A stretch of DNA of 64,000 nucleotides. Origin: Eledone cirrhosa (lineage: Eukaryota). The DNA lies in NCBI GenBank assembly GCA_964016885.1, contig OZ024743.1:47182001-47246000 (forward strand), read 5' to 3'. Within the stretch, counting starts at the first letter, position 1. Each line of letters begins with the position of its first letter. Below are positions 2,096-61,753 of this stretch, piece after piece. The notes under the pieces were generated by a model. It saw only the letters and a program-made list of their open reading frames with translations, was not told the DNA's origin and searched no databases. A program made the translations under genes and the position numbers.

Positions 2096-2119
2096 TTTTT
2101 CGTCTGTCATGGTGGTCAA

Positions 2120-2400
2120 TAATTGTTTCTACTTTTGGCACAAGGCCAGCAAATTACCAGTACATTACTGGTACTTTATTTTATCGACCCCGTAAGGATG
2201 AAAAGCAAAGTTAACCTCGGTGGGATTTGAACTCAGATCGTAAAGGGACGTAACTATGCTGGAAAGCATGTTCGACCCTCTACCAATACTGCCAATTCAC
2301 CGCCCTTAATTGTTTCTACCTTTAGCACAAGGCCAACAATTACCCAGTACGTTACTGGTACTTTATTTTAGCGACCCCGTAAGGATGAAAGGCAAAGTTA
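2120..2400 (-). mobile_element. tRNA-derived SINE family 1 (one full and one partial copy)
   Basis: Same ~190 bp repeat as 5779-5968: B-box gagttcaaatccc, central ctttcatccttacggggtcgataaaataaagtacc, tail gtagaaacaatt. Confidence 0.85.
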
Positions 2401-2590
2401 GTCAATAATATCGATAGCTATGGGCTGTGGATCTTCGGTCAGAGATACAAGTTTTGGTTTTTGTAAATATTTCAATTATTTGATTATTTGATTTCATTTT
2501 CGTGTTGTTGCTGACTTTAGCAGTTCTATAAAAACCACGTCTACTCAGTCCAGTTTCAATGTATGTATATTATAAGTTGACATGGAAATA

Positions 2591-2762
2591 CAGTGAAATT
2601 CCGTTATAACGAAATTCCCGGGGCATAAAAAAATTCGTTGTAACGAAAAATTCTTTATAACGAGATCGACCTACACATCGAACGTGGGGCGGGGATTGAA
2701 AAGAATTTCGTTATACTGAAAAATTCGTTTTAATGGTATTCGTCATAACGGAATTTTACCTG
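2591..2762. mobile_element. pogo/Tigger-like MITE
   Basis: TA|CAGTGAAATTCCGTTATAACG ... CGTCATAACGGAATTTTACCTG|TA inverted ends, internal ttataacg repeats. Confidence 0.75.
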
Positions 2763-2859
2763 TAATAGCAAAAGCAAAACATAATTCTTAACTATACCCG
2801 GTTTTTTAATAAGACGTGGAGGGTTGAAGGTGAAAGATGCGGACCCACTGTACACTTAC

Positions 2860-3063
2860 CTGCGGTTTCTCCATCTTTTACTTTGACGTAGTCATAGTCA
2901 CAATTCTCCGACTCTTCTAGAGCAAACTTATGAAAAGTAAGAGTGACAGTTTCTTCGAATGGCGATCGTATGATGTAAACGCATCTAGCATTGGCCGGAT
3001 AAGGATTTGGGAAACGTGGGGATTGTATTTTCACACCTTTTATATCAATGATTTGAGTACAAC
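2860..3063 (-). CDS. CUB-domain protein, exon (N-terminal half of second CUB domain)
   Basis: tttcag|...|gtaagt, 204 bp, phase 1-1; GCTQIIDIKGVKIQSPRFPNPYPANARCVYIIRSPFEETVTLTFHKFALEESENCDYDYVKVKDGETA. Confidence 0.9.
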
Positions 3064-3102
3064 CTGAAATAGAGACGATAGTATATATATATATACACAT
3101 AT

Positions 3103-4620
<1,518 letters not shown>

Positions 4621-4633
4621 CACTTCAAATAAA

Positions 4634-4708
4634 ATTTCATTCTGACGAAAGATTTCAACCGTCTGTATCGAGCTCGTCTGTCTTCGTGAAACCTTTGGTA
4701 AATGGAAT
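4634..4708 (+). ncRNA. Type I hammerhead in a pLTR fragment (4619-4735) related to the 7398-12497 element
   Basis: atttcatt-CTGACGA-long stem II-GAAA-CCtttGG-TA-aatggaat; same tail ttatgttgtttattacata as 12470-12487. Confidence 0.7.
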
Positions 4709-4914
4709 AATTGTCTTATGTTGTTTATTACATAACTCTATCTATCTATCTATCTCTCTCTCTCTCTATATATATATATATAAATATGAATGTATGTACA
4801 GTATATTTGGCAATATGCCGTATGTTTAATTCAAAACATTTAGAAGACCATACGCTATCAGTTTTAAAGTAGTGACTATGTCACTTACTTCTTTTCGGCG
4901 AAAGAAGGGGGAGA

Positions 4915-27674: not shown

Positions 27675-30600
27675 AGACATATGTAGGTAAGACATATGTA
27701 GGTAAGTCATGTGTAGGTAAGACATATGTAGGTAAGATATGTGTAGGTAAGACATGTGTAGGTAAGACATATGTAGTAAGACATGTGTAGGTAAGACATA
27801 TGTAGGTAAGACATATGTAGTAAGACACGTATAGGTAAGACATACGTAGGTAAGACATGTGTAGGTAAGACATATGTAGGTAAGATATGTGTAGGTAAGA
27901 CATGTGTAGGTAAGACATATGTAGTAAGACATGTGTAGGTAAGACATATGTAGGTAAGACATATGTAGGTAAGACATATGTAGGTAAGACATATGTAGGT
28001 AAGACATGTAGGTAAGGCATATGAAGGTAAGACATGTGTAGGTAAGACATGTGTCTTTTAGATCGGTTAATTTAATTTATTCGGTCCTCAATGTTGCCAT
28101 TGACTGACCAACGGTCAAAAATACAGATACAATATTGACACAAACACATATATAGTCTAACATGTGTAGGTAAGACATGTGTAGGTAAGACATGTGTAGG
28201 TAAAACATATGTAGGTAAGACATGTGTAGGTAAAACATATGTAGGTAAGACATGTGTAGGTAAGACATATGTAGGTAAGACATATGTAGGTAAGACATGT
28301 AGGTAAGGCATATGAAGGTAAGACATGTGTAGGTAAGACATGTGTCTTTTAGATCGGTTAATTTAATTTATTCGGTCCTCAATGTTGCCATTGACTGAAC
28401 AACGGTCAAAAATACAGATACAATATTGACACAAACACATATATAGTCTAACATGTGTAGGTAAGACATATGTAGGTAAGACATATGTAGGTAAGACATG
28501 TAAGTAAGACATGTGTAGGTAAGACATATGTAGGTAAGACATATGTAGGTAAGACATGTGTAGGTAAGACATATGTAGGTAAGACATATGTAAGTAAGAC
28601 ATATGTAGGTAAGACATATGTAGGTAAGACATATGTAGGTAAGGCATATGAAGGTAAAACATGTGTAGATAAGATATGTGTAGGTAAGACATGTGTAGGT
28701 AAGACATATGTAGTAAGACATGTGTAGGTAAGACATGTGTAGGTAAGACATATGTAAGTAAGACATGTGTAGGTAAGATATATGTAGGTAAGACATATGT
28801 AGGTAAGACATGTGTAGGTAAGACATGTGTAGGTAAGATATATGAACGTAAGACATATGTAGGTAAGACATATCTTTGTAAGACATGTGTAGGTAAGACA
28901 TATGTAGGTAAGACATATGTAGGTAAGACATACGTTTGTAAGACATGTGTAGGTAAGATATATGAAGGTAAGACATGTGTAGGTAAGACATATGTAGGTA
29001 AGGCATGTATAGGTAAGACATGTGTAGGTAAGACATATGTAAGTAAGACATGTGTAGGTAAGACATATGTAGGTAAGACATATGTAGGTAAGACATATGT
29101 AAGTAAGACATGTGTAGGTAAGACATATGAAGGTAAGACATATGTAGGTAAGACATGTAAGTAAGACATGTGTAGGGAAGACATATGTAGGTAAGACATA
29201 TGTAGGTAAGACATGTGTAGGTAAGACATATGTAGGTAAGACATATGTAAGTAAGACATATGTAGGTAAGACATATGTAGGTAAGACATATGTAGGTAAG
29301 GCATATGAAGGTAAGACATGCGTAGATAAGATATGTGTAGGTAAGACATGTGTAGGTAAGACATATGTAGGTAAGGCATGTGTAGGTAAGACATGTGTAG
29401 GTAAGACATATGTAGGTAAGACATGTGTAGGTAAGACAAATGTAGGTAAGATATGTGTAGGTAAGACATATGTAGGTAAGACATATGTAGGTAAGACATA
29501 TGTAGATAAGGCATATGTAGGTAAGGCATGTGTAGGTAAGACATATGTAGGTAAGACATATGAGACATATGTAGGTAAGACATATGTAGGTAAGACATGT
29601 GTAGGTAAGACATGTGTAGGTAAGACATATGATACATATGTAGGTAAGACATATGTAGGTAAGACATATGTACGTGAGACATGTGTAGGTAAGACATGTG
29701 TAGGTAAGACATATTTAGGTAAGACATATGTAGGTAATACATATGTAGGTAAGACATGTGTAGGTAAGACATATGTAGGTAAGACATGTGTAGGTAAGAC
29801 ATATGTAAGTAAGACATGTGTAGGTAAGACATGTGTAGGTAAGACATACGTAGGTAAGACATATGAGACATATGTAGGTAAGACATATGTAGGTAAGACA
29901 TATGTAAGTAAGACATAAGTAGGTAAGACATGTGTAGGTAAGACATGTGTAGGTAAGACATATGTAGGTAAGACATATGTAGGTAAGACATGTGTAGGTA
30001 AGACATGTGTAGGTAAGACATGTGTAGGTAAGACATATGTAGGTAAGACATCTGTAGGTAAGACATGTGTAGGTAAGACATGTGTAGGTAAGACATATGT
30101 AGGTAAGACTTGTGTAGGTAAGACATGTGTAGGTAAGACATATGTAGGTAAGACATGTGTAGGTAAGACATATGTAGGTAAGACATATGTAGGTAAGACA
30201 CGTATAGGTAAGACATACGTAGGTAAGACATGTGTACGTAAGACATGTGTAGGTAAGACATATGTAGGTAAGACATGTGTAGGTAAGACATGTGTAGGTA
30301 AGACATGTGTAGGTAAGACATATATAGGTAAGACATGTGTACGAAAGACATATGTAGGTAAGACATATGTAGGTAAGACATATGTAGGTAAGACATATGT
30401 AGGTAAGTCCTGTGTAGGTAAGACATATGTAGGTAAGACATATGTAGGTAAGTCATGTGTAGGTAAGACAATTGTAGGTAAGACATATGTAGGTAAGGCA
30501 TATGAAGGTAAGACATGTGTAGGTAAGATATGTGTAGGTAAGACATGTGTAGGTAAGACATATGTAGGTAAGACATGTGTAGGTAAGACATATGAAGGTA

Positions 30601-33600
30601 AGACATGTGTAGGTAAGACATGTGTAGGTAAGACATGTGTAGGTAAGACATGTGTAAGTAAGACATGTGTAGGTAATAGATATGTAGGTAAGACATATGT
30701 AGGTACGACACGTGTTGGTAAGACATGTGTAGGTAAGATATATGAAGGTAAGACATGTGTAGGTAAGACATGTGTAGGTAAGACATATGTAGGTAAGACA
30801 TGTGTAGGTAAGACATATGTAGGTAAGATATGTGTAGGTAAGACATATGTAGGTAAGACATGTGTAGGTAAGACATATGTAGGTAAGGCATGTGTAGGTA
30901 AGGCATGTGTAGGTAAGACATATGTAGGTAAGACATATGTAGGTAAGACATGTGTAGGTAAGACATATGAGACATATGTAGGTAAGACATATGTAGGTAA
31001 GACATATGTAGGTAAGACATATGTAGGTAAGACATGTGTAGGTTAGACATGTGTAGGTAAGACATATGTAGGTAAGTCATATGTAGGTAATACATATATA
31101 GGTAACATATGTGTAGGTAAGACATATGTAGGTAAGACATATGTAAGTAAGACACGTGTAGATAAGACATGTGTAGGTAAGACATATGTAGGTAAGACAT
31201 ATGAGACATATGTAGGTAAGACATATGTAGGTAAGACATGTGTAGGTAAGACATGTGTAGGTAAGACATATGTAGGTAAGATATGTGTAGGTAAGACATA
31301 TATAGGTAAGACATATGTAGGTAAGACACATGTAGGTAAAGCATGTGTAGGTAAGACATGTGTAGGTAAGATATGTGTAGGTAAGACATATGTAGGTAAG
31401 ACATGTGTAGGTAAGGCATGTGTAGGTAAGACATATGTAGGTAAGACATATGTAGGTAAGTCATGTGTAGGTAAGACATATGTAGGTAAGACATATGTAG
31501 GTAACACATATGTAAGTAAGACATGTGTAGTTAAGACATGTGTAGGTAAGACATATGTAGGTAAGACATATGTAGGTAACGCATATGTCGGTAAGACATG
31601 TGTATGTAAGACATGTGTAGGTAAGACATATGTAGGTAAGACATGCGTAGGTAAGACATATGTAGGTAAGACATATGTAGGTAAGACATATGTAGGTAAG
31701 ATAGATGAAGGTAAGACATATGTAGGTAAGACATATGTAGGTAAGACATATGTAGGTAAGACATGTGTAGGTAATACATATGTAGGTAAGACATATGTAG
31801 GTAAGACATGTGTTGGTAAGACATGTGTAGGTAAGATATATGAAGGTAAGACATATGTAGGTAAGACATATGTTTGTAAGACATGTGTAGGTAAGATATA
31901 TGAAGGTAAGACATGTCTAGGAAAGACATGTGTAGGTAAGACATATGTAGGTAAGATATGTGTAGGTAAGACATATGTAGGTAAGACATATGTAGGTAAG
32001 ATATATGTAGGTAAGGCATGTGTAGGTAAGGCATGTGTAGGTAAGACATATGTAGGTAAGACATATGAGACATATGTAGGTAAGACATATGTAGGTAAGA
32101 CATGTGTAGGTAAGACATGTGTAGGTAAGACATATGAGACATATGTAGGTAAGACATATGTAGGTAAGACATATGTAGGTAAGACATGTGTAGGTTAGAC
32201 ATGTGTAGGTAAGACATATGTATGTAAGACATATGTAGGTAATACATATATAGGTAAGACATGTGTAGGTAAGACATATGTAGGTAAGACATATGTAAGT
32301 AAGACACGTGTAGATAAGACATGTGTAGGTAAGACATATGTAGGTAAGACATTTGAGACATATGTAGGTAAGACATATGTAGGTAAGACATGTGTAGGTA
32401 AGACATGTGTAGGTAAGACATATGAGACATATGTAGGTAAGACATGTGTAGGTAAGACATATGTAGGTAAGACACATGTAGGTAAAGCATGTGTAGGTAA
32501 GACATGTGTAGGTAAGACATATGTAGGTAAGACATATGTAGGTAAGACATGTGTAGGTTAGACATGTGTAGGTAAGACATATGTAGGTAAGACATATGTA
32601 GGTAATACATATATAGGTAAGACATGTGTAGGTAAGACATATGTAGGTAAGACATATGTAGGTAAGACATGTGTAGGTAAGGCATGTGTAGGTAAGACAT
32701 ATGTAGGTAAGACATATGTAGGTAAGACACATGTAGGTAAAGCATGTGTAGGTAAGACATGTGTAGGTAAGACATATGTAGGTAAGACATATGTAGGTAA
32801 GACATGTGTAGGTTAGACATGTGTAGGTAAGACATATGTAGGTAAGACATATGTAGGTAATACATATATAGGTAAGACATGTGTAGGTAAGACATATGTA
32901 GGTAAGACATATGTAGGTAAGACATGTGTAGGTAAGGCATGTGTAGGTAAGACATATGTAGGTAAGACATATGAGACATATGTAGGTAAGACATATGTAG
33001 GTAAGTCATGTGTAGGTAAGACATATGTAGGTAAGACATATGTAGGTACGACATATGTAAGTAAGACATGTGTAGTTAAGACATGTGTAGGTAAGACATA
33101 TGTAGGTAAGACATATGTAGGTAAGGCATATGTAGGTAAGACATGTGTAGGTAAGACATATGAGACATATGTAGGTAAGACATGTGTAGGTAAGACATAT
33201 GTAGGTAAGACACATGTAGGTAAAGCATGTGTAGGTAAGACATGTGTAGGTAAGACATATGTAGGTAAGACATATGTAGGTAAGACATGTGTAGGTTAGA
33301 CATGTGTAGGTAAGACATATGTAGGTAAGACATATGTAGGTAATACATATATAGGTAAGACATGTGTAGGTAAGACATATGTAGGTAAGACATATGTAGG
33401 TAAGACATGTGTAGGTAAGGCATGTGTAGGTAAGACATATGTAGGTAAGACATATGTAGGTAAGACACATGTAGGTAAAGCATGTGTAGGTAAGACATGT
33501 GTAGGTAAGACATATGTAGGTAAGACATATGTAGGTAAGACATGTGTAGGTTAGACATGTGTAGGTAAGACATATGTAGGTAAGACATATGTAGGTAATA

Positions 33601-34525
33601 CATATATAGGTAAGACATGTGTAGGTAAGACATATGTAGGTAAGACATATGTAGGTAAGACATGTGTAGGTAAGGCATGTGTAGGTAAGACATATGTAGG
33701 TAAGACATATGAGACATATGTAGGTAAGACATATGTAGGTAAGTCATGTGTAGGTAAGACATATGTAGGTAAGACATATGTAGGTACGACATATGTAAGT
33801 AAGACATGTGTAGTTAAGACATGTGTAGGTAAGACATATGTAGGTAAGACATATGTAGGTAAGGCATATGTAGGTAAGACATGTGTATGTAAGACATGTG
33901 TAGGTAAGACATATGTAGGTAAGACATGCGTAGGTAAGACATATGTAGGTAAGACATATGTAGGTAAGACATATGTAGGTAAGATATATGAAGGTAAGAC
34001 ATATGTAGGTAAGACATATGTAGGTAAGACATATGTAGGTAAGACGTATGTAGGTAAGACATATGTAGGTAAGACATATGTTTGTAAGACATATGTAGGT
34101 GAGACATATGTAAGTAAGACATATGAAGGTAAGACATATGTAGGTAAGACATATATAGGTAAGGCATGTGTAGGTAAAACATGTGTAGGTAAGACATATG
34201 TAGGTAAGACATATGTAGGTGAGACATCTGTAGGTAAGAGATGTGTAGGTAAGACTTGTGTAGGTAAGACTTGTCTAGGTAAGACATATGTAGGTAAGAC
34301 ATATGTAGGTAAGACATATGTAGGTAAGACATGTGTAGGTAAGGCATGTGTAGGTAAGCCATGTGTATGTAAGACATATGTAGGTAAGTCATGTGTAGGT
34401 AAGACATATGTAGGTAAGTCATGTGTAGGTAAGACATATGTAGGTAAGACTTGTGTAGGTAAGACATGTTTAGGTAAGACATATGTAGGTAAGACATCTG
34501 TAGGTAAGACATGTGTAGGTAAGAC
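27675..34525 (+). repeat. 15-bp satellite ACAT(A/G)TGTAGGTAAG, roughly 440 units
   Basis: Directly visible; interrupted at 28051-28156 and 28342-28447 by inverted copies of 27509-27616. Confidence 0.98.
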
Positions 34526-35155
34526 GTAGCGTAGGAGAAAGGCTGAAAGAACACTGGAGAGAACTCCAAGATGAGAACAACTCATCAGTACTCCACCAAC
34601 ATACCAGAATGGAACGTGGAGGCTCCCTGGAGAACATCGAGATAAAAATGATATCTACACACAGAGCAGACGCTAGGCTCCGACAGATTACTGAAGTTTC
34701 AAACATAAATGAACTTCACCAAATTTAAATAGAAAGCATGAATGGAATAATAACAACTTCATAACATTATGACGAGTAGGAAAGAGAGAAGACTGAGAAA
34801 AATACCCCCCTCCCACCACAGACGTAACACATGCGCAGCTCAGGTACAAGGCTCACAAAGACAAGATGGGATAAATCAGAACAAAGATGAGACACAAAGT
34901 ATCAAAAGTAGTGACTGAAGAGGTCACAGAATGTGAGACAAAAGAGCTCTGACTATCAACAACTATACAACCACCCGCTTATTGAACTAACCGACAGGAA
35001 ATTATAATAATAAATTGAAGCGAAAACCAACTGGTGTGTGTGTGGTGTGTGTGCTTTTATGGGCAGCATTACCCTCCCAAAGTATAACAGTATCTGTTTC
35101 AACACACGTTTTCACATAAAACATCTTGCAAAACAAATACAAAAGCGAAGTATAT
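34525..35155 (+). mobile_element. 3' fragment of a Penelope-like element: GIY-YIG C-terminal half, 3'UTR, tail and extension
   Basis: RSVGERLKEHWRELQDENNSSVLHQH...RQITEVSNINEL, then frameshift, PNLNRKHEW...* (stop 34770-34772); ends in a TA-rich tract. Confidence 0.8.
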
Positions 35156-35157
35156 AG

Positions 35158-35188
<31 letters not shown>

Positions 35189-35869
35189 AGATATAGATAT
35201 GTACATATGTATACATACATACATACATATACATACATATACATATATATACCTACATACATATACATAATGTATATAAATATGCACATACATATATATA
35301 TATATACACACACTTACATATATATATAAATATATATATATGATATATAGGAGAAAGTATGACCCCGACGGCAGAGCTCAAGCCGTTTCTGGCTATTTCT
35401 GGACCAAATAGTCTAGAAATAGCCGTCGAAACGGCTTGAGCTCTGCCGTCGGGGTCATACTTTCTCCTATTACCCACTCTACTACCCTAAGTATTGAGTA
35501 CTCTGGTGCGTTATGGTCCATCTGGTTCCTTACCACAACTCCTTCGTTATATATGATATATGTATAAATGTATATATGTATATATATATATGTATGTATG
35601 TGTGTATGTATGTATATATGTATGTACATATGTATGTATTTTTATACACATATATCTGTATCCGTTTATACACTCACACATACATTGACATATAATGTAC
35701 GTGTGTACGTGTGTACGTGTTTTAAATACTCCCAATATTCCTGAGCCATCAAAGTCCTTTTTTCTCGAAAGTAGAACAGGAAATGATAATTACCATAACA
35801 TAGTTTAATACTGAACACTTATTCCATCAATTAATTCTATATAACAATATATATTCTCCTCTGAAATAA

Positions 35870-36565: not shown

Positions 36566-36570
<5 letters not shown>

Positions 36571-37022
36571 ATGCTTTGAGAGGGTCATGTTGCCAATAAG
36601 AAACACACGCACCAGTTGCTTTCACTACAATTTATTATATATTAAATTTATAAAGTTAAGAATTTATAAATTTCCGGTTGGTTGGTTGGTTCCACAACCG
36701 GATCGTTGTTCATATATTGTCAAAGTTCTTTCGTCACACATTCCGTAACCTCTTCAGTGACTGGGGATTCTTTTCTTTGTTTTTGTGCCTCTCTTTTGTT
36801 CTGTCCTACACCATCAATATATGAACAACCGTCCGGTTGTGGAACCAACCAATCAACCGGAAATTTATAAATTCTTAAATTTATAAAATTAATTTATAAT
36901 AAATTGGAGTGAAAGCACTAGTGCGTGTGTTTCTTATTGGCAACATGACCCTCCCAAAGTATAACAATATCGGTTTCAACACACGTTTTCAGATAAAGAA
37001 TCTTGCTAAACAAATTCAGAAA

Positions 37023-37024
<2 letters not shown>
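36566..37024. mobile_element. Asymmetric fold-back element (tail family shared with 27291 and 35071)
   Basis: Arms 36566-36719 / 36814-36968, ~55 nt extension similar to 35090-35150; (TA)n flanks. Confidence 0.8.
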
Positions 37025-37106
<82 letters not shown>

Positions 37107-37358: not shown

Positions 37359-38761
37359 CGTTCATATATCATAAGTGTATGTATCGTTCAGATATGATGG
37401 ACCCATAAATAAGGAGAGAACCAGAACTGATTACCTCAGAAGAGTAAAGAAAATATGGTCATCAGAACTGTCAGCATACAACAAATACATTGCCCACAAT
37501 ACTTATGCTGTGCCAATTCTAACGCCAACATTTGGCCTACTGAACTGGTCATTGCAAGAACTAAGTGAGATGGATGTTAGAACTCGAAAACTTCTCAGTG
37601 TTACTGGGAACTTTAACATCAATGGTGATGTGGATAGGCTATACTTCTCACGCAAGGAAGGTGGCCGGGGTCTAAAATCAATATTAACAACATATGAGAC
37701 CCGGATAGTGACACTGAAGCAACACCTTCAACAGAGGAAAAAGGTTGGCAACCATCTTGCCCAGGTTTATGACCATGAAAAAAGAAATATCATTAGAATA
37801 GCGACTGATCTGGAGGAGAGATATGGAATAAAGCCCGATATAAATCTCTCACCCAGAGAAATCGGAAGATCCTATTCAATGTTCAAACAAGAAAAAAAAA
37901 TTGACCAATTTACAGAAAAAGTTGTGCATGGATACTTGAGGCGTAAAACACAGACCATAGAGGGGATAAACCACTCAAAAAGCCTGGCATGGAATTCCGA
38001 CAAGTTTATGACATCACACCTTGAGGGATATCTCTATGCAATACAGGAACAAGAACTCCCTACCAAATATCTGCTGCACAAAAGAGGAGGGCCAGCAGCT
38101 GACAATAAATGTAGGCTATGTAAAACAAAGATCGAGGATGTAAGCCACATTGTTGCCAGCTGCGAAAGAATGTCATCTCGCTACTACCTCCCCATGAGAC
38201 ACGATGGGATAGCTAGAACCATCTGGAACGCACTTCGGAAAACAAAATCAACAACAAACGAGGAAGAATATATTGAGACAGATGGCACTAAGGAATACTG
38301 GTGGAACCTGAAAATAAAAACTGCCACCAAATTAAAGCACAACCGGCCTGATATTGTAGTTTGGGACCACACATTGAAAACGTGTCCTGTCGTGGAGATC
38401 AGCTGCCCACTTGATGTAAACGTTGTCAGAAAAATAGAGGAGAAGGAGGACATCTACGGACCATTGATGAGGAGTTTACAAATCCAGTATCCAAGATACA
38501 CCTTTAGCTTCATACCCATCATTATTGGTGCTACGGGTTATATACCAACCCGCTTGGACCAAAGTATGACTGAACTTGGATTTGCGGACAAAAAGCGCAG
38601 CTCCCTAATTCATAGTCTACAAATGGCTGCGATAGCTGGCACCTTCAAAATTTGCAAAACATTCTTGCGATTCAAGGGATGACAATTTCTTTTCTTTTAC
38701 AACCTTGCCACCAGGAAGGTGGCCGGTCAAAAAATATACTCAAAATTAAGAGAAAGAGAAA
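37359..38761 (+). mobile_element. R4/Dong-like RLE non-LTR retrotransposon, family A, 5'-truncated
   Basis: Open ORF 37375-38682: RLYFSRKEGGRGL, AIQEQ, CRLC..HIVASC knuckle, RHD, NRPDIVVWD, VEISCP; (CATA)n on both sides. Confidence 0.88.

Positions 38762-58917: not shown

Positions 58918-61753
<2,836 letters not shown>

Follow-up and report, generated by a model that had tools for sequence, protein, structure and literature searches.

A 15-bp minisatellite derived from the YIG-motif codons of a Penelope-like endonuclease in Eledone cirrhosa, probably formed after insertion

Introduction

Minisatellites derived from transposable elements have been described from Alu, B1 and LTR sequences, with models of their formation by Jurka and Gentles and by Haber and Louis, as cited in the accessible text of PMC3389668 and PMC6947457. 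Telomerase and the bacterial DRT10 system synthesize uniform repeats of a template and need a boundary stem-loop, according to the available portion of PMC12632851. Among Penelope-like elements, the Neptune type is characterized in the accessible part of PMC8557442 by a reverse transcriptase (RT) followed by a C-terminal GIY-YIG endonuclease, with a CX4CxxC linker, a CCHH motif and R/H/E/N catalytic residues, as well as by inverted pLTR arms, an optional tail, TA targets and heavy 5' truncation. Satellites from Penelope elements already appear in a review (PMC12692304, available sections), and an in vitro Penelope-like system has been reported (PMC11167929, in whose available sections repeat addition is not described), the read-level data of which could bear on RT slippage. 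No paper joining Penelope-like elements, tandem repeats and template switching or slippage was found in a literature search covering openly accessible articles.

Here, a 15-bp array is described from a 64,000-nucleotide stretch of the Eledone cirrhosa genome (contig OZ024743.1, positions 47,182,001 to 47,246,000; the window), for which telomerase-like repeat synthesis by the RT during insertion had been proposed. The array is very probably a transposon-derived minisatellite that formed after the insertion of its source element.

Results and Discussion

The array and its unit

The minisatellite lies at positions 27675..34525 of the window on the forward strand, where TRF reports a period of 15, 463.3 copies and 86% matches, corresponding to about 460 units in 6.9 kb; parsing into units gave totals of 435, or of 427 with at most three substitutions in each. 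The unit translates as T-Y-V-G-K, and this part of the original prediction is borne out. All 154 occurrences of the unit dimer in the 3.0-Gb genome are inside the array, which rules out a widespread 15-mer satellite, and a search for the native-type dimer with up to three mismatches returned L091 as the sole other locus. The window also holds an unrelated single-locus array of 18 copies of 38 bp.

The 435-unit parse contains 68 distinct unit types, and two main variants at unit position 5 (243 versus 180 units) are interspersed through the array. The two commonest types account for 271 of the 427 units, compared with the 60-116 units that would remain unchanged had all of them been ageing from the time of insertion, and pairwise unit divergence is 9.2%, about half of the 17-25% expected under such ageing; the units are thus younger than the element copy that hosts them. 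The longest exact repeat within the array spans 48 units; in 20 shuffled versions it reaches only 6-8. A 757-bp exact duplication with an offset of 738 bp (32393..33887, +) represents either very recent expansion or assembly error, and a 272-bp exact repeat is also present. These two exact repeats would be expected of collapsed or duplicated blocks, and independent reads over the locus were not found, the one public run examined sharing 0.04 of words; however, the array, with its 68 unit types, is for the most part free of such redundancy, so that a length owed in part to misassembly is unlikely, and such an artefact would bear on the size of the array and not on its origin.

The source element

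The array adjoins the C-terminal half of a GIY-YIG endonuclease from a copy of an old subfamily, A (34525..34772, +), which has a 5-nt deletion at its start and a frameshift near 34717. This remnant is followed by the 3' untranslated region or pLTR of the same copy (34773..35150, +) and by a decayed (TA)n tract at its 3' end (35151..35349, by TRF). The array had been thought to read directly into RSVGERLKEH...PNLNRKHEW; the adjoining RSVGERLKEH...RQITE was confirmed as 67 open codons at 34525-34725, but PNLNRKHEW is in a different frame beyond a 1-nt loss near 34717, and the array and the remnant are not one frame because the array frame ends in a stop at the junction. The predicted loss of about 5 nt at this junction agrees with the relatives, which have five extra bases there. 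With RT, thumb and endonuclease pieces as queries, tblastn against the window matched only 34528-34766; the window therefore lacks coding sequence upstream of the remnant, as had been stated. The terminal branch of the subfamily A copy is 0.083, with 29 of 235 sites differing from the family majority, and its codon changes comprise 10 nonsynonymous and 8 synonymous ones plus the frameshift; none of the relatives scored exceeds approximately 85% identity to it over the full stretch.

Judging from motifs and not from an RT tree, the source element is probably a Penelope-like element of the Neptune type. One relative (L175) encodes, within a single ORF, an RT with YVDD, then the thumb and the endonuclease, an arrangement missing from the truncated window copy. 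Its RT matches Pfam RVT_1 at E 4.7e-05, under the curated cut-off, and RVT_1/DUF8422 in an atlas search at 0.95, and the endonuclease matches GIY-YIG in the atlas at 0.97, with the family on 13% of members. Pfam returned no match for the endonuclease or thumb pieces, and a PDB search gave weak bacterial RT matches only (E 0.02 and 0.05). Three other relatives (L205, L167 and L189) have a CX2-5CxxC linker, the CCHH motif and the R/H/E/N catalytic residues; the window copy retains R, H, H and E, the N being located beyond the frameshift. Direct or inverted pLTRs, the optional tail and (TA)n targets are likewise present.

The native site and the founder bases

The 15-bp unit matches the T-Y-I-G-E codons at the YIG motif of the endonuclease, and its predicted derivation from these codons is upheld. 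Relatives read TYIGET at this site. Of 142 family copies, 139 have A at unit position 7 (33/33 close copies) and 138 have G at position 13 (32/33 close copies); the array has G at position 7 in 410 of 427 units and A at position 13 in 418 of 427. The two array bases do not occur together in any of the 142 family copies, and the two native bases do not occur together in any of the 427 units, array edges included; a difference of relatives at the motif had been named beforehand as an outcome that would speak against synthesis by the RT. A native TYVGKT, as originally proposed, was tried as the parent and rejected: among 59 pattern matches the V codon was found in none and the K codon in two. YVGE occurs in two copies of the family (L213 and L246), and a parent with both array bases may exist outside the scored candidates, which were 40 of 1799 and 150 of 21,599. 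Nearly all units carry the two family-rare bases, so ageing of the founder unit, within a copy 8-12% diverged, probably came first. One of these founder substitutions gives the unit an 8-bp palindrome; support for a hairpin is weak, as shuffled units fold equally well in 6% and 3% of cases.

The short terminal redundancy that had been expected at the native site is real: an A-B-A' terminal repeat of at least 3 nt is present in 64 of 142 copies, against a background of about 3% of positions in a one-direction count. In a rival reading, the RT slipped on this repeat at insertion and left a small number of units where the element was truncated at its 5' end; one mutated unit took over much later and expanded at the DNA level. 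This reading is improbable, even if several observations agree with it. The terminal repeat is 3-4 nt in 62 of the 142 copies, upstream coding sequence is missing as described above, and the RTs of Penelope-like elements fall together with TERT and DRT10 (PMC12632851, available portion). Against it stands the loss, up to the very edges of the array, of every unit that has both native bases. Folding 5' of the site gave z values of -1.2 to +1.7, and a boundary stem-loop was seen in none of the seven correctly oriented copies, a weak test given their decay.

Tandem repeats in other copies

Other copies of the family were surveyed for tandem arrays. The survey set consisted of 213 non-self loci, 183 of them with an endonuclease hit, which after removal of 19 duplicates left 164 non-redundant loci; being the top matches of the endonuclease piece, these loci are a biased sample and amount to a small part of the 21,599 candidates. 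The direct-arm 5' end fell within the fetched DNA in 148 cases. These ends are spread along the whole element, some of them 2-40 nt from the YIG codon, which counts in favour of an RT-made seed. Arrays of at least three units were found at 1 of 148 5' ends versus 1 of 280 interior points, and element-derived ones at 0 of 148, the unit at L144 not being found in the element; the last of these counts speaks against an RT-made seed. Two-unit tandems were found near 10 of 148 5' ends versus 5 of 280 interior points, a nominal excess at 5' ends, although on inspection by eye the units are in flanking or simple DNA. These counts supersede an earlier version with a narrower search window and without a positive control (3/148 versus 12/730).

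At L239, a 30-bp element-derived array of 5.8 units is located at an inversion junction, a geometry that fits RT slippage. The corresponding inverted-arm test for arrays (0/27, then 0/21) is uninformative because it missed this known case. At L091, in contrast, the same 15-mer is present in duplicate mid-ORF, flanked left and right by the element, which argues against an RT-made seed; intact ORF on either side had been named beforehand as favouring slippage after insertion. Of 13 duplications checked by hand, 10 are likewise enclosed by element sequence, several of them adjoining a small upstream deletion, and at L245, L065 and L168 both units have common changes absent from most other copies.

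The left flank and the inverted inserts

The array begins next to a much younger element of subfamily B, which was not part of the original prediction, nor were the inverted inserts derived from it. It comprises a (TA)n target tract (27239..27291), an inverted arm representing the 3' end of the pLTR (27292..27426, -), 95-96% identical to the best other copies, and the direct arm of the pLTR (27427..27672, +), 97-98% identical to its relatives. The last approximately 35 nt of the direct arm and the TA tract are missing; in all 29 relatives examined the sequence extends beyond the base corresponding to 27672, as far as the terminus, and closes with a TA run. The B element is 2-3% diverged, compared with 8-12% for the A copy. 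Its two arms are only 91% alike, so two insertion events are possible. A hammerhead-like core was noted by eye near 27468-27505; Rfam, searched to an E of 5, yielded nothing beyond simple-repeat noise, and monomer folds were not significant. At the left junction (27673..27676, +), four nucleotides repeat 27662-27665, including one base private to the B copy; the last two are common to the unit, leaving two informative bases, and a templated join is possible. The array had been placed exactly at the 5' truncation point of its source; as read from the sequence, its left end is instead a later junction with the younger, 3'-truncated B element, the original 5' junction having been lost.

Within the array, positions 28050..28154 (-) are a 105-bp inverted copy of flank 27513-27617 with 100% identity, the best of 29 other B copies reaching 98.1%. 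A second inverted 105-bp insert (28341..28445, -; 99%) was duplicated along with adjoining units at a spacing of 291 bp. The inserts and the flank have in common the private bases at 27531 and 27606 (each in 0/29 relatives), and the base at 27606 is missing from the inverted arm of B. By these private bases, the inserts are copies of the B flank made after the flank had mutated, and they postdate the B insertion if both arms represent one event. Array and inserts might instead have been made together during the B insertion, by the RT of B or through a repair switch to adjacent DNA, as the inserts and the left junction are B-derived and at most 780 bp from B, and a unit divergence of 3-5% per lineage approximates the age of B; an insert base found in the direct arm and neither in the inverted arm nor in 29 relatives makes this very improbable, again assuming one event. 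That telomerase-like addition at insertion produced the whole array or most of it is scarcely credible, although the unit comes from within the element, is confined to one locus and adjoins the 5' limit of what is left of the element: one template would give one sequence, yet the position-5 variants are interspersed and blocks of up to 757 bp are duplicated, unit divergence is roughly half the expected value, and the inserts and left junction are later than the much younger B element.

Proposed history of the locus

A transposon-derived minisatellite formed after insertion remains the preferred reading. The unit is a single-copy segment of the element, arranged head-to-tail at one locus, and the array has shared derived bases, interspersed variants and block duplication, which are signs of expansion after insertion. 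An ancient insertion would have brought a Neptune-type element of subfamily A into a TA tract, where it decayed. The 15 bp at the YIG codons, between direct repeats of 2-4 nt, would have gained two substitutions and been duplicated at the DNA level, by slippage or microhomology-mediated repair, in which hairpins may have had a role. Growth to about 460 units would have followed by repeated slippage or unequal exchange, and the younger B element would have inserted upstream. A rearrangement would then have removed the 3' end of B, its TA tract and the intervening DNA, probably including former upstream A sequence, joining B to the array, which would also have received a 105-bp stretch of the B flank in inverted orientation through template switches. 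The sequence shows the ancestry of the unit, how old the two flanks are, that the inserts came late and that blocks were duplicated; the slippage or repair chemistry, the part played by hairpins and the former presence of A sequence upstream are inferred. The first duplication is not directly datable, since unit turnover could erase an older seed.

On this history, the locus is a well-dated minisatellite birth in which the ancestral single unit, the micro-repeat, the founder substitutions and the repair scars are visible, which is useful and not surprising. An RT-made seed, if true, would be genomic evidence that the sister group of telomerase adds repeats, and would bear on the origin of telomerase. 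It is doubtful, if conceivable, that Penelope-like RTs keep such a latent repeat addition, leaving, when they stall or switch templates, a few tandem copies at A-B-A' junctions (perhaps at L239) as seeds that grow to kilobase minisatellites.

Comparison with known systems

Compared with the Neptune-type elements of PMC8557442, in its accessible part, the window has only a decayed endonuclease half and the pLTRs of two subfamilies. As in telomerase and DRT10, judging from the available text, an A-B-A' arrangement surrounds a short template in a related RT lineage; however, no boundary was seen, and the units are heterogeneous and off the family template. The inserts would resemble microhomology-driven inverted copying of local sequence, differing in their length of 105 bp, in their location within a repeat array and in the animal genome. 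With the transposon-derived minisatellites presented in the accessible literature, the locus shares the growth of a short motif from within an element, lying between micro-repeats, into an array at one locus through local duplication once the element had inserted. The flanking repeat here is 2-4 nt, whereas that of the Haber and Louis model is 5-10 bp, and the array differs further in its endonuclease coding source, its 6.9-kb length and its inverted templated inserts.

The 15-bp Array and Its Source

The 15-bp array at 27675-34525 (+) has a period of 15 and 463.3 copies (Tandem Repeats Finder), and its unit translates as T-Y-V-G-K. Very probably it is a single-locus minisatellite that arose from Penelope-like endonuclease codons and owes its growth and rearrangement to DNA-level processes that followed insertion. 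As first proposed, the short repeat stems from YIG codons, and it is confined to one locus: the unit dimer has 154 occurrences in the animal's own 3.0-Gb genome, 154/154 of them inside the array. Relatives have a single copy of the site, which reads T-Y-I-G-E-T-A-R-S-I-G-E-R. To the right lie the C-terminal endonuclease half (67 open codons, frameshift near 34717), then a pLTR (terminal repeat) and a TA tract. Relatives have 5 extra bases at the array/endonuclease junction, which bears out the gap of ~5 nt noticed there but not the proposed TYVGKT parent, as relatives read TYIGET; two copies among 142 read YVGE. Three other decayed copies (L100, L111 and L022) have small deletions at the same spot, so the missing 5 bases are no sign of truncation. 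Judging from features including inverted pLTR arms and TA targets, the element fits the Neptune-type Penelope-like elements as defined in PMC8557442.

The host copy is an old insertion in decay. Its closest relatives, with 40 of 1799 candidates scored, are ~84% identical over the endonuclease piece; it departs from the family majority at 29/235 sites (median of 38 other copies, 10.8%), its terminal branch measures 0.083, and its codon changes number 10 nonsynonymous versus 8 synonymous. Of the 427 array units, 410 have G at position 7 and 418 have A at position 13, and none has both native bases. Close family copies have A at position 7 in 33/33 and G at position 13 in 32/33, the wider family in 139/142 and 138/142, respectively, and none of the 142 carries both array bases. 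Two changes per 15 bases is about the load expected for a copy of the host's age, so the founder unit would most simply have aged before it multiplied; these figures date the present units and not the first duplication, since unit turnover can mask an older seed. Two unit variants are interspersed (243:180), exact block duplications reach 757 bp, and the longest run to recur spans 48 units, compared with 6-8 when the units were shuffled 20 times.

The Left Junction and Neighboring Features

A separate young subfamily (97-98% to relatives) supplied the flank at 27292-27672, an insertion with two arms. Past the point equivalent to 27672, 29/29 relatives examined extend as far as the terminus and a run of TA, whereas the copy in the window ends there, joined directly to the array. 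The left junction is thus secondary, with the old copy's original 5' end lost, and the suggested position of the array exactly at a 5' truncation point is not supported. The segment 27513-27617 occurs twice inside the array in inverted orientation (100% and 99% identity; best other copy, 98.1%). These inserts match the flank at two bases private to it (27531 and 27606), yet have the majority base at 27508, and their ends, read by eye, show short microhomologies with the unit; they were copied from flank DNA midway through the young element's decay.

Further arrays in the window, indicating that such arrays arise readily here, lie at 45702-46385 (38 bp x 18, units 98% identical, single-locus in the genome, unrelated to the 15-bp array) and 19232-19734 (19 bp x 26.6, indel variants; Tandem Repeats Finder). 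Another TA tract in the window hosts a Penelope-like pLTR insertion with two arms (36567-37025; both 3' ends intact, one arm with a tail, 93% similarity between the arms). The window also contains a near-perfect, MITE-like inverted repeat of ~120 bp (~35349-35470; similar sequence in L233 and L208) and long stop-free frames at 58921-60663 (384 + 195 aa) and 37375-38682 (435 aa).

Duplications in Other Copies and the Origin of the Array

Repeats with ORF on either side would favor slippage of DNA after insertion, and at L091, a locus of another subfamily (1501-1533; G000:C4:177721980), the same YIG 15-mer was independently duplicated within the ORF, adjoining a ~27-bp deletion. The anticipated terminal redundancy is present at the native site, at least 3 nt in 64/142 copies, and serves slippage by DNA polymerase as well as by RT. 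Ten of the 13 duplications examined lie inside the element. In each of L245, L065 and L168, the two units have changes in common that most other copies lack.

That the RT made only the seed is unlikely. Its best candidate is the L239 array (2521-2693; G000:C2:356205100-356209100), 5.8 element-derived 30-bp units that show a 90-bp higher-order repeat and lie where the inverted and direct arms meet, in a copy ~90% like its nearest relatives; two-unit tandems also occur near 10/148 5' ends versus 5/280 interior positions, although visual inspection places them in flanking or simple sequence. Against it stand the mid-ORF L091 duplication and the 5'-end survey, which detected both positive controls: an array of at least three units, with a unit not found in the element, occurred at 1/148 ends (interior control, 1/280), so that 0/148 ends had an element-derived array of that size. 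Telomerase-like synthesis of the whole array during insertion, the strong form of the original proposal, is highly improbable, as it predicts 60-116/427 unchanged units and 17-25% pairwise divergence, whereas 271/427 units belong to two types and pairwise divergence is 9.2%, and the unit bases, block duplications and secondary left junction are all contrary.

For the preferred DNA-level expansion, hairpin-driven growth of the unit may be considered as a lead only. The G at position 7 creates an 8-bp palindrome, enabling adjacent units to form hairpins; eight units fold at -19.7 and -19.8 kcal/mol on the two strands (means of 33 native units, -8.0 and -3.4), but folding is as strong in 6% and 3% of shuffled units, and stronger in one native unit.

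Elsewhere, the paralogous decayed copies L100, L103 and L112 are each followed, from the 3' pLTR region, by a 37-bp array (7 to >31 copies) whose unit has no match to the element, and L175, a young copy, has a head-to-head inverted duplication of >1 kb of RT coding sequence (2119-3420 (-) / 3520-4848 (+)). Judging from their motifs, L166 2938-4632 (+) is presumably a different RT and YIG element adjoining a subfamily-B copy, and L170 799-1980 (-) a mariner-like transposase remnant.

Comparison with Known Systems

According to PMC12632851, DRT10 and telomerase depend on a boundary stem-loop in addition to an A-B-A' pattern; the native Penelope-like site also has the pattern, but no such stem-loop was seen in seven decayed copies. 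Within the literature searched, no paper links Penelope-like elements with junction arrays. In earlier work, transposons commonly give rise to minisatellites (they account for 23% of human mini/satellites), with the start unexplained for most and some possibly triggered during retrotransposition (PMC3389668); a micro-repeat slippage model is described (PMC6947457); Penelope elements are already listed among satellite sources (PMC12692304); template jumps are proposed for Penelope inserts (PMC3846280); and an in vitro Penelope-like system exists (PMC11167929). The inverted inserts of the array resemble the templated inverted insertions at breaks described in PMC11724301.
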